From: an uncultured Chthonomonadaceae bacterium
GTDB taxonomy: Bacteria; Armatimonadota; Chthonomonadetes; Chthonomonadales; Chthonomonadaceae
Length of the DNA: 64,000 nt
Reading direction: 5' to 3'
Assembly (NCBI GenBank): GCA_963835065.1
Contig: CAWIEK010000016.1
Coordinates: 1-64,000, forward strand
This document shows, piece after piece, positions 1 to 57,702 of the stretch. The notes under the pieces are model-generated. The model was not told the DNA's origin, ran no database searches, and was given only the letters and a program-made list of their open reading frames with translations. Made by a program: the position numbers and the translations under genes. Position 1 is the first letter of the stretch. Each line of letters opens with the position of its first letter.

Positions 1-552
1 GGTGAAGGTGTAGGAAAGGTCATCGCCCCAATGCACGCTCACGTTGCTTGACAGCCCGAACCCGCCGCCGCTGACCAGGTAGAGGTCGTAGCTGTGCGTC
101 CACTTCTGCCCCACTTCGCCGTTGTGCGTGGACTGGCTGTTGTGGTAGAGCGTGAACTCGACGGGAAAGCCGCCGCGTTGTGTCCAGCCGACAAGGGGAA
201 CACTGGTGAGTTTGTTGCCGTTGCCGGTGTTGGTTCCGGCGACGTTGCCTTCCCAGGGGAACGTGGAACCGGAGGCGAAACTCACCGATGTGGGATGAAA
301 GCCGCCTTGTGCCCCCACCATCTGCCGCATTTCTGCCACAGACAACGCGCGAACGCCAACCCGCTTCACCGGGGCAGGGTGCGCCAGCACTTGCGCAGGC
401 GTGGCAAGCAGCGCCATCCATGCGAAGACAAGCGACATAAGCAGGGCAGTGCGCCGCAGCCAGAGGGGAGAGCGGGGCGGCGAAGAAGCCTTGCGCCTTA
501 CGAAGTGGTCGGCACAAAGGTTGTGCCGCCCTGTTGACGAAGAACCTGTCAT
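1..552 (-). CDS. N-terminus of an RHS/YD-repeat-type secreted protein (DUF6531-like region); runs off the window start
   Basis: Absent from the ORF track because it has no stop in the window. ATG at 552 with SD AGGAGAAAGGAAGG; reads MTGSS...LRRTALLMSLVFAWMALLATPAQVLA (signal peptide)...NTGNGNKLTSVPLVGWTQRGGFPVEFTLYHNSQ...GQKWTHSYD, the typical pre-RHS N-terminal motif. Confidence 0.8.
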   Translation of the reverse strand, partial: MTGSSSTGRHNLCADHFVRRKASSPPRSPLWLRRTALLMSLVFAWMALLATPAQVLAHPAPVKRVGVRALSVAEMRQMVGAQGGFHPTSVSFASGSTFPWEGNVAGTNTGNGNKLTSVPLVGWTQRGGFPVEFTLYHNSQSTHNGEVGQKWTHSYDLYLVSGGGFGLSSNVSVHWGDDLSYTFT

Positions 553-647
553 GAGTCCTTCCTTTCTCCTGTCGTCGTGACAGGAAAGGAACCTGCGGAA
601 CACGCCGCAGATGAACGGGGACAACGACCAACAGTGCCGTTGCCGGG

Positions 648-676
648 TTGACAGGCCGGAAGCGCTCAGGTACAAT
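648..676 (+). promoter_or_regulatory. sigma70-type promoter TTGACA-N17-TACAAT
   Basis: TTGACA 648-653, 17-nt spacer, TACAAT 671-676. Confidence 0.6.
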
Positions 677-701
677 CTTGGTTGAGCCTTCGGGCCATAA
701 G

Positions 702-756
702 GCCGCTTCCTCTCCTCCTTATTCTTGACGGGAGGGGGAGGAGAGGGCGGTTTGTT
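702..756 (+). terminator. GC-rich hairpin with a short U tail
   Basis: gccgcttcctctcctcc...gggagggggaggagagggcggtttgtt. Confidence 0.5.
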
Positions 757-804
757 GACTTCGATTACAATGCCGAAGCCACATCGGTATAACTCAGAAC
801 AAAT

Positions 805-1597
805 CTACTTGCGAAATAAGCACTGCAGAAGCAGGTAGCCACTGCAAAGCCTCAGAAGCCGCTCTTGGGAAATGGTTTCTTCCTGCGCGTGGTTGGGATC
901 GTGAATACGGACGGTTCCGCTTTCTCCCCTGCCCTGCATCTCCTCAACAAGTACAAAATGATTGCTGTTGACGTAAGCCAACGCGGGCATGTCCACGTCC
1001 GGCAAGGCTTCGCGGCTGACCTGCACTCCTTCTGCCTGCAACCCTACCGCTTTCGCCGCCTGCGCCAAGTCCTTCCACACTGCTGCCCTGCTCCGTCGTG
1101 CCTGCAAGCTGTCGTAGCTGCGGCAGGGTTGCCTTACACGCCAACTGTTCACACGCCAGCAACAGGGCGCGTGGACCACAATCGGCGTTGGTGGCTGGTG
1201 GCTGGTGACTGGTGATTGGAGTTGCTGTTCTCTGTTGCCTGTTTCCTGTTCCCTTGCTCACCGGCAGTCCGGCGTCTTTGAGGCACAGGTCGCGTTGTTC
1301 TTCCACAAAGGCAAGCTGTTCGGGTGTCAGGGAAGAAGACGCGGCGAGTTGGGAAAGAAGGTGAGCGGCGGAACGGAAGTCACGAAGTTTGCAGGCTTGC
1401 TGCGCTTGTCGGTACAGGGGAAGAGACTGCACGACTGCAAGGGCATTTTGCTGTGAGGACGTGACGAGCGCGGCAGGCGTGGTGCGGCGTGGAGACGCGG
1501 CGTTTGTAGCGGAGGCAGGCGCAGGAGCCGTTCGGGAGCAGCCGACAAGCAGGGGCAGTCCGCAAAGCAGAGCCGGGAACCAAGCGTAACGAGGCAT
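805..1597 (-). CDS. C39 family peptidase, predicted lipoprotein (frameshift near 1066, probably an assembly indel)
   Basis: MPRYAW...LLVGC lipobox; catalytic motifs DCGPRAL (Cys), NHFVLV (His), HDPN (Asp) are split over ORFs 944..1729 and 805..1179; removing one G gives ...SVEGLAQAAKAVGL... Confidence 0.8.
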
Positions 1598-1981
1598 TGT
1601 ACGAACAGGATAACCGACCATGCACCACCGTGACTTTCCTAACGACACACGGGTGAACAAAGCAAGCAAACACAATCCTGATGAACAACAAGGCGGCAAA
1701 ACAGCGAATGGATGATTTTGGAATTGCAATCAGGAAGCGTCCTGCGTTGGTGCAAAAGCGGCTTCGAGGATGATAGGTACGGCGAACAGCAAGGATACGC
1801 CGAAAGTAGTACAAACGCGAACAACTTGTAGAATGTAGCACGGCCTCGCTGCTTTGTCAAGGCCGTTTATAAAAAATTTCCTGCGTTTTTGCTGCCTATC
1901 CCCGCGTTCTTTTGTGAAGACCCAAGTTTGGTTCAATCTCCTTCAGAAAAAACAGGCTTCGCGTAGGCTTGCAATCCGGGC

Positions 1982-4181: not shown

Positions 4182-5718
4182 TTAAACGCTTCGACGCCGG
4201 AGTACCTGACCGGGATGCGCCCCCGTGATTTTGTTGTTGTCCAGCACGGGCGTTCCGTTCACCAGCACGTAGGGCAAGCCGACGGGCGGGGAAGCGGGAT
4301 TTGAGATGGTGGCGGTGTCCTGAACGGCCTGCGGGTCGAACAGCACAATGTCCGCTTTCTTGCCCGGCGCAATCTGGCCGCGATCCGCAAACCCCATGCG
4401 CTTGGCGGCAAGCAGCGTCATTTTGTGGATGGCCTGCTCCATTGTCAGGATTTTGCGTTCGCGGACGTACACGGCAAGGATGCGGGGGAAACTGCCCGCG
4501 CCGCGTGGATGCGTGGGGCGCAGCGAGCCATCCGTGCAGAACATCAGGCGCGGGCTGGCGACAAACTTATCCAAATCCCCTTCCGTCATGGCCGTCACAA
4601 CAACGCTTTCCCGCCCCGTCGCGCCCTCGCCATGCGTTTTCTGTACGATCTCCTGAATGATGGACACGGCATCCCGGCCCGTTGACTGCGCAATGTCGGC
4701 AATGGTCTTGTCTTTCCACATCGGGTCGGGCGTGTACTCGGTCAGGCGAACGTGTTCCGGCCCGCCCACTTCCGCCAATCCCTGCTGCCAGAGCGCGCGG
4801 TTGTTCCAGTCGCGGGAGGGGATCAAGACGGTAATAGTGGACTGCCAGTAGAGATACGGGTACACGTCCGCGCTGATGTCCAGCCCCTCCCGGTTCGCGT
4901 TTTCGATGCGCTGGAGAACGGCAGTGCGCATGGCCCCAACTCGGCGCGGTATCCAGCTTGATATGCGAGATTTGCGCGGGCAATTTGGCGCGGCGGGCGA
5001 TAGTAATCAGTTCCTCAAACGATTCTTCCGCCTTGTCGCCTTCGTCGCGCACATGGCTGATGTACAAGCCGCCATGCCGTCCCGCGATTTCCGAACAGGC
5101 AACAAGTTCGTCCGTCGTGGCGTAAAACCCCGGATCGTATTCCAGCCCCGTAGACAGTCCCAAGCCGCCCGCTTCCATTTCCTGCGCAACAAGCGAGCGC
5201 ATCTTTTCCAGTTCGCTGCTCGTGACCGGGCGCTTGTAATCGGTTCCCGTCGCCGCGCCGCGCACCGTGCCATGCCCGACGAAACTGGCGATGTTGAGCG
5301 CAACGTGTTTGGCTTCCAATTGCGCGAACCAGTCTTTGAGGGGCAGATGCGAACTTCCGTCCTGCCCGACAACGGATGTGGTAATGCCCTGCCGAATGTG
5401 GGTTTCCGCGTCGGGGTTTTCCAATAGCCCGCCGTCCACATGGCTGTGCGTATCTATGAAGCCCGGAGCCACGATCAGCCCCGTCGCGTCAATCACGCGC
5501 TCGTCCTTGCGCGGTTTGAATTTGCCGATACCCGCTATCCGCTCGCCCACAATGCGAACGTCCGCCCTGCGACCCGGCTTGCCCGTTCCATCCACAACCG
5601 TTCCGCCCGTAATCAGCAGCCGATTGGACGCGGGTTCCACCGCCCAACTGTCAGCCGAAAGCCCCAACACGCCCCCTGCTGCCACGACCCGCAAAAACTC
5701 ACCGCGCGATAAACTCAT
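4182..5718 (-). CDS. N-acyl-D-amino-acid deacylase (amidohydrolase family); frameshift near 4935
   Basis: VAPGFIDTHSH, GLSTGLEYDPG, SHVRDEG, ISHIK, DVYPY, HPRGAGSFPR, IAPGKKADIVLFD; Tat-like MSLSRGEFL N-terminus. Confidence 0.9.
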
Positions 5719-5859
5719 TTGTTGTTTTCTCCCTCTCTTGCCGCGCACACCTGCTGTTCAGGCTGCAAAGGAACTTTATGGTTCCATAGCGAAATGTCTG
5801 TCAACTCCGCTCTGGTTTGTATGCAGGTATACGCTACAGGAATGGCCGAGATTGCCGAA

Positions 5860-47564: not shown

Positions 47565-57702
<10,138 letters not shown>

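Follow-up and report, generated by a model that had tools for sequence, protein, structure and literature searches.

Across the Armatimonadota, a double-glycine-type leader motif at the N-terminus of Rhs proteins is tied to a neighboring gene for a stand-alone C39 peptidase, the two occurring together throughout the phylum. Sequence features and structural modeling further suggest, with a probability that we put at about 65%, that an exported C39 lipoprotein would trim this pro-leader from a Sec-exported Rhs toxin. An earlier note on a single locus had proposed that an exported C39 protease matures a polymorphic-toxin-like protein by bacteriocin leader logic; co-occurrence and a predicted complex now lend support to that idea, at a locus whose own protease gene is frameshifted.

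An Rhs gene with a leader motif beside a C39 lipoprotein gene

The locus lies in the window, the 64,000-nucleotide stretch of DNA analyzed here, which forms the start of contig C16 in a Chthonomonadaceae genome of 8.0 Mb (71 contigs, 91.9% complete). Its features are as follows.

1..552, minus strand: 5' part (184 codons) of a DUF6531-Rhs gene; ORF from the ATG at 552 with a purine-rich SD close upstream, cut by the contig end
4..231, minus strand: DUF6531 (PF20148), the Rhs N-terminal plug/lid domain; amino acids 108-183, 34.1 bits against a cut-off of 24.1, E 3.5e-8
310..381, minus strand: predicted pro-leader, amino acids 58-81, ending in a double-glycine-type motif at 345-310; predicted cut after G80-A81
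382..552, minus strand: predicted Sec signal peptide, amino acids 1-57, read from the sequence and hydropathy
648..757, plus strand: antisense sigma-70-type promoter, then a predicted RNA (about 75 nt), both between the protease and Rhs genes; z -3.78
805..1597, minus strand: gene for a C39 lipoprotein made up of a lipobox, a small helical domain, a linker and the peptidase domain; two frames in the assembly, start at 1597 or 1621
898..1180, minus strand: catalytic triad codons Cys 1180-1178, His 960-958 and Asp 900-898; invariant in 28/28 aligned domains
1066..1072, minus strand: frameshift of one extra base, from alignment to the paralogue on contig C53 and a same-genus homologue
1538..1549, minus strand: lipobox-like LVGC, from the sequence, with its Cys at 1540-1538
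1832..1860, minus strand: promoter-like site upstream of the C39 gene, a possible operon promoter; 10/12 consensus with extended TG, a consensus match only

The Rhs reading frame runs off the contig at base 1, so that the RHS repeats and toxin tip lie outside the window. Its predicted signal peptide comprises a long basic n-region, an h-region with a 12-residue Kyte-Doolittle mean of 2.32 and a putative cut after VLA (residue 57). Signal peptides were judged by eye and hydropathy; by the latter measure, an h-region of at least 1.5 lies upstream of the motif in 28/30 loci linked to a C39 gene. The earlier note had described a leader-type motif behind this hydrophobic segment, and it is indeed found there: residues 70-81 of the ORF (minus strand 345-310) read LSVAEMRQMVGA, placing L at -12, E at -8, M at -7 and -4, G at -2 and Ala at -1. 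The hydrophobic residues at -12, -7 and -4 (L70, M75 and M78) and the Gly at -2 (G80) fit a leader of the double-glycine type. The note's own pattern has 4 matches in the 16.0 million six-frame positions of the genome, and Rhs N-termini supply 5 of the 12 matches to the textbook pattern; by these counts, the window motif is more than chance.

The label "RHS-type" given to this protein is borne out by DUF6531 in the window and by the RHS repeats of paralogues and homologues, the truncated window copy itself containing no repeats. Three linked homologues have 9-17 RHS stretches, and the variable C-terminal tips, small downstream genes and orphan cassettes of Rhs polymorphic toxins are present in paralogues and relatives. 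Paralogues on C53, 89-92% identical, go on into RHS repeats, variable tips and orphan cassettes. The remainder of the window gene was looked for and not found; the start of C53 was considered for it and rejected, being a separate copy (288/300 bases identical after the leader, 90% over 434 bases). In linked loci, the protease gene is followed by an Rhs gene (about 1050-1300 residues, variable tips), by small genes and, at times, by orphan tips. Several tips in linked loci L211, L218 and L220 and on genome contig C41 are Gly-rich and hydrophobic, recalling membrane-active bacteriocins, and small hydrophobic ORFs lie behind some of these Gly-rich tips.

The C39 protein belongs to a family with at least 159 homologues (length 120-450 residues), those with an organism-bearing source name being Chthonomonadales; close relatives occur in Chthonomonadaceae, Capsulimonadaceae, Armatimonas and Chthonomonas. 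Intact homologues in relatives span about 220-325 codons, and one scores 71 bits on PF03412 (cut-off 22). Cys, His and Asp are invariant in 28/28 aligned domains, at only 23-72% identity to the first sequence. Among the homologues listed, the triad pattern is found in 111/120, a loose lipobox pattern in 80/120 and a Gln six residues before the catalytic Cys in 0/120. In a longer subfamily, the lipobox form gives way to a signal anchor with TPR-like repeats (weak TPR_6 match). The lipoprotein signal peptidase gene lspA (LspA) was found in 4/4 genomes searched. In a homologue model (pLDDT 86.1, pTM 0.57), four helices form a domain that a flexible linker joins to the C39 domain; the best Foldseek matches of the latter are the domains of PCAT1, HlyB, LahT147 and ComA, with an rmsd of about 2.2 A for PCAT1, LahT147 and ComA. 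The homologues stop directly after the C39 domain, with no fused ABC membrane or ATPase domains, which sets them apart from PCAT/AMS exporters. None of the 6 PF03412 matches in the 91.9%-complete genome is ABC-fused; all 6 are lipoprotein, TPR-C39 or Rhs-fused forms.

In the window, the C39 reading frame is not intact. An extra base near 1069 leaves the catalytic Cys in frame 1597-944 (PF03412 positions 10-52, 21.9 bits against the cut-off of 22) and the His and Asp in frame 1179-805 (positions 46-127, 45.5 bits, same cut-off). The upstream lipoprotein with C39 motifs and no ABC part, as it had been described, therefore stands as to lipobox, residues and missing ABC part, its residues being split between two ORFs. 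We lean toward an assembly error. The assembly splits near-identical Rhs copies again and again; among 24 genes, 4 are multi-frame, 2 of these being Rhs genes, and the alignment reveals a compensated indel pair within a G-run near the frameshift; such pairs are a typical long-read error in repeats. The triad, lipobox, promoter-like site and leader are moreover all unaltered. It is less likely, though a reading to be taken seriously for this locus alone, that the locus is a decaying duplicate and its C39 gene a real pseudogene: the one-base insertion speaks for it, as do rpoC and secA, uninterrupted in the same assembly, and a C39 remnant that precedes another Rhs gene on C41. Public contigs from 4 runs included none across 1068-1164, and the public read runs listed included none with half of the region and no RNA run. 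Should the frameshift be real, activity in trans would be required, either from the C39 domain on C53 (92% identical) or from another C39 copy.

Elsewhere in the window, a LolA-like protein (PF17131 match) is encoded at 1982-2824 on the minus strand, upstream of the C39 gene and on the same strand; no such neighbor of the C39 gene is evident in 7 listed loci. The gene at 4182-5748 (minus strand), which we take to be amidohydrolase-like, is spread over two frames, a further frameshift in the assembly. Two large neighboring ORFs of 1521 and 1841 codons occupy 47565-57699 on the plus strand.

Leader and protease across the Armatimonadota

The association was assessed in 401 Armatimonadota genomes, searched with an alignment of the post-leader Rhs region, a query that contains neither the motif nor the neighboring gene. 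The search gave 197 Rhs matches, of which 47 were unlisted and 2 unfetched, so that 148 were examined among the 150 matches listed. Leaving out 11 with less than 1.1 kb upstream and 2 fused genes yields 135 scorable unfused DUF6531-Rhs genes. Of these listed matches, 31 are preceded within 1 kb by a separate C39 gene and are termed linked; the other 104 are unlinked.

The textbook motif L[ST]xxE[LM]xxxxG[GAS] is present in 17/31 linked and 0/104 unlinked genes (p 1.6e-13), counted among the matches listed, as are all motif frequencies in this paragraph. Relaxing it to LxxxE[LM]xxxxG gives 27/31 against 4/104, and a family-fitted pattern, fitted after some loci had been seen, gives 27/31 against 3/104. 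The exact form LSxxEMxxxxG[GA], which the earlier note had proposed to look for in homologues, occurs in 6/31 linked and 0/104 unlinked genes; many loci depart from it by having T at -11, or R, S or T at -1. Kinship was controlled for with a FastTree of 133 rows (2 more were dropped as too short), built on 147 columns only and containing several long branches. In 11 independent tree pairs, the motif goes with the C39 gene in 8.0 and against it in 0.1 (median sign-test p 0.008); the looser pattern gives 7.1 for and 0.0 against (p 0.016). Conservation of the motif and its co-occurrence with a C39 gene, two of the three points named at the outset as able to refute the idea, did not refute it. The 3 strict motif-bearing unlinked exceptions come from genomes that have a stand-alone C39 gene at another site; in G371 and G315 it lies some 5 kb downstream.

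A second set, overlapping the first in part (for example L271 and L244), comprises 59 metagenome loci found via the protease. A DUF6531-Rhs gene lies downstream in 39/59; 14 are too short and 6 have none. The fitted pattern is present in 27/33 non-duplicate loci, the misses being degenerate versions or cases with an insert before DUF6531. The leader profile, in which L-12 and G-2 are set by the extraction pattern, shows R-14 in 26/29, E-8 in 27/29, M or L at -7 in 28/29 and I, L or M at -4 in 28/29. At -1, the 30 linked genome loci have A in 14, R in 9, S in 3, T in 2 and G in 2, so that G, A or S accounts for 19/30; among the metagenome leaders the figure is 22/27. About 100 related Rhs genes are without both the leader and an adjoining protease, which indicates that the step is dispensable for the wider family. 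These protease-less relatives have different N-termini, many bearing RRxFL, presumably a Tat-like signal.

Linked genes travel together, and many of the linked loci are confined to a few clades, so that leader and protease gene might be no more than a co-inherited cassette, the protease having another substrate and the motif another role. This seems improbable: the conserved positions -12, -7, -4 and -2 are exactly those read by C39 enzymes, the motif is gone where the C39 gene is missing in sister branches, and it is back in cis behind fused C39 domains. The fused domains occur in two proteins of about 1500 residues in G264, which carry the signal, TPR, C39, a leader ending in GG (LSxxxLxxAWGG), DUF6531 and RHS in one chain. 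Among 3387 candidates, a search for more leader-bearing fused proteins returned only the two known ones, a weakly informative result. A second fused type is organized as signal-TPR-C39-like-Cys-rich-DUF6531-RHS; CG...HDH...SDCG replaces the usual motifs, and no clear double-glycine leader is seen in the 4 inspected, which are as follows.

C48:91019-92704, genome: second fused type
C3:96583-98209, genome: second fused type
L050: second fused type
L030: second fused type

Other arrangements were also observed. At C41:58954-62497 in the genome, an intact 1124-codon Rhs ORF with a leader ending in G-R is preceded only by a remnant of the lipoprotein N-terminal part. A 756-codon ORF at C57:98339-100606 opens with the lipoprotein signal and helical domain (71% identical) and goes on into unrelated sequence with no C39. 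In L299:645-3612 and L295:144-1614, a small ORF, rich in Cys and bearing a signal and a leader-like motif that ends in GG, stands directly before an 816-codon C39-ending protein, another exported-C39 layout without Rhs.

The gap between the protease and Rhs genes contains a conserved element on the opposite strand. In the window, TTGACA-17-TACAAT at 648-676 (plus strand) agrees with the promoter consensus at 11/12 positions, and the predicted RNA has a short hairpin followed by a long G+C hairpin and a U-run; these hairpins fold better than 200/200 shuffles. An antisense promoter of at least 10/12 is present in 14/31 linked loci versus 0/31 on the sense strand, in 11/31 metagenome loci (3/310 shuffles) and in 3/104 unlinked Rhs loci. 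The long hairpin keeps 15 pairs, 12 of them with two-sided changes, in 23 sequences picked for the promoter, and a hairpin profile finds 5/19 linked loci outside the alignment, 0/104 unlinked loci and one site before another Rhs gene in the genome. An Rfam search with the element gave no match, and a simple terminator scan did not call its hairpin. Promoter and hairpin are also present ahead of Rhs genes at C53:470599-470723 and C53:544871-544969. The promoter spacer and the 5' end of the RNA that the promoter is predicted to drive are complementary, which makes a hairpin possible on the mRNA strand too. A cis-antisense RNA appears to be the simplest reading of the conserved element, which may instead be a structure in the operon mRNA.

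Proposed maturation of the exported Rhs protein

The protease and Rhs genes are adjacent on one strand and probably co-transcribed. The lipobox on the protease and the Sec-type signal on the Rhs protein suggest that both would be exported and the protease lipidated. Signal peptidase would then expose residues 58-81, and L70, M75 and M78 (-12, -7 and -4) would fit into the C39 groove in the manner known from LahT147, as a strand and a short helix. Finally, Cys, His and Asp would cut after G80-A81, giving a mature N-terminus some 26 residues before the DUF6531 lid. Most plausibly, if speculatively, the leader would serve as a grip, keeping the newly made Rhs chain at the membrane enzyme up to the cut that releases it.

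The docking step draws on a model of the window leader with the C39 domain of the C53 paralogue, a check proposed along with the original idea; the model puts the leader inside the groove of the peptidase, next to its catalytic Cys and His. The complex scores 0.84, against 0.02 for the best of 3 controls; the mark used for this score is reached by 116/157 solved pairs and 2/215 mismatched pairs. Contact agreement between runs is at least 71%, and partner pLDDT at least 63. In the prediction, L-12 lies paired to the GVQV strand, the helix that follows a conserved Gly packs against M-7 and M-4, and the interface includes both the catalytic Cys and His and leader residues 19-30, G-2 and A-1 among them. 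The hydrophobic groove of LahT147 receives leader residues -4, -7 and -12 (PMC6363468), and these are the conserved leader positions here. The leader is predicted to dock in the LahT/PCAT1 groove, with a score that possibly reflects memory of the solved complexes 6mpz and 6v9z; since like complexes are already solved, the model shows likeness and not binding of this leader-paralogue pair.

Co-occurrence and docking indicate recognition, not catalysis, and the main rival account builds on this distinction. According to PMC10885120, C39 enzymes cut after GG, GA or GS, so Arg or Thr at -1 in 11/30 leaders counts against simple cleavage, as does the missing oxyanion Gln (0/120 among the homologues listed). 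With HlyB among the structural matches, the C39 lipoprotein could, in the manner of the HlyB C39-like domain, bind the leader to tether the Rhs chain or help it fold, and cut rarely or never. We consider this unlikely, though the strongest of the competing accounts of the leader. Cys, His and Asp are invariant at as little as 23% identity, whereas non-catalytic C39-like domains are described as being without catalytic activity (PMC5557850), and Gly-2 is kept throughout, with a small residue at -1 in most metagenome leaders. As to the oxyanion, Gln21 of LahT lies 4.3 A from it, and His may serve instead (PMC6363468).

Leaders of this kind are known as export signals. That the motif here is a PCAT export signal is unlikely because an h-region precedes it in 28/30 loci, 4/4 genomes searched have LspA and yielded no T6SS sheath gene, and 6/6 C39 matches in this genome are non-ABC. 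In its full form, this account has a PCAT or type I exporter recognize the motif on the cytoplasmic side, the real start codon lying past the hydrophobic segment. It can draw on the reliance on eye and hydropathy for signal peptides and on G001, which has a C39 match in a 1037-codon ORF, and it is very improbable given the h-regions, the lipobox or signal anchor of the partner enzyme and the lack of ABC-fused C39 among the genome's matches. Nor does T6SS delivery of the Rhs protein fit the data: the sheath family PF05943 has no match in 4/4 genomes searched (PF05954 has one in 3/4), and the Rhs protein bears a Sec-type signal.

Trimming by the exported lipoprotein remains the preferred reading. 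A more ambitious version of it, to which we give even odds, is a phylum-wide Rhs module that would combine a Sec-exported toxin, a membrane-tethered C39 acting in trans or, when fused, in cis, a relaxed -1 pocket that accepts Arg, and an antisense sRNA that tunes output.

Comparison with known systems

The closest precedent is FapD of the Pseudomonas Fap amyloid system, a periplasmic stand-alone C39 protein with an export signal and a required Cys; its target is stated as unclear, and the Fap proteins are without a canonical leader (PMC5557850). As with FapD, a stand-alone C39 protein with a predicted export signal is encoded here beside its presumed substrate. Unlike in the Fap system, the candidate substrate has a canonical-type leader, and the enzyme would be a lipoprotein with a helical N-domain and an Rhs partner. 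It also differs from FapD in its NF058616 score, 14.5 bits for the window C-terminal frame only, against a cut-off of 330. No FapF-type barrel or amyloid subunits are evident in the ORF lists of 7 loci. If the proposal is true, exported stand-alone C39 peptidases would gain a defined enzyme-substrate pair, a matter left open by the FapD target.

The system resembles the PCAT/AMS peptidases LahT147, PCAT1 and ComA in fold, in Cys-His-Asp, in the hydrophobic -12, -7 and -4 and Gly -2 of the leader and in the predicted binding mode (PMC6363468 and PMC10885120). It differs in that the C39 domain is predicted to be extracytoplasmic and has no transmembrane or ATPase domain, that the substrate exceeds 1000 residues, that -1 is often Arg and that the oxyanion Gln is missing. 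The leader, lying behind a Sec signal, would not be an export signal as in PCAT/AMS; if the proposal holds, it would instead serve as a second tag that acts after export. Leader-removal tools, a wider set of which is sought in PMC10885120, could be joined by natural stand-alone C39 enzymes, some of them paired with Gly-Arg sites, and the protease and Rhs partner are small and amenable to E. coli work.

Among Rhs proteins, Tse5, Rhs1, TseI, RhsA and S. suis WapA are cut just before DUF6531, a cut attributed to self-cleavage whose mechanism is unsettled (PMC10684867 and PMC12704120). The proteins described here share with them the DUF6531 lid, the YD shell, a variable tip and the removal, here proposed, of an N-terminal piece near DUF6531; they share with WapA a Sec export that is predicted here. 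They differ in the dedicated neighboring protease that is proposed to act on them. Among the matches listed, xP[VI]NxxxG, which starts at the WapA cut, occurs in 0/135 unfused members, with or without C39, and in both fused ones. The protease as a specific replacement for a lost self-cleavage site was accordingly discarded, the site being missing in all 135 unfused members, linked or not. If the proposal is correct, it would provide a trans-acting route for the N-terminal Rhs cut, the mechanism of which is called poorly known in PMC10684867.

C39-type domains have also been noted in polymorphic toxins and large secreted proteins. Tox-PLC39 is listed as a toxin domain of polymorphic toxins (PMC3482391), and giant Omnitrophota proteins with an N-terminal C39 beside signal peptides have been proposed to process their own chain (10.1101/2023.11.21.568195). 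Unlike in those cases, the C39 domain here sits on a separate lipoprotein and is matched by a leader, a combination not described in the available parts of these two sources. A literature search of passages, listings and abstracts found no description of a C39 lipoprotein paired with a leader-bearing Rhs protein, though the supplement of Zhang et al. 2012 may list architectures of this kind. An exported stand-alone C39 protein is known from FapD (PMC5557850), and what appears to be new within the scope of that search is the pairing with a leader-bearing Rhs protein.
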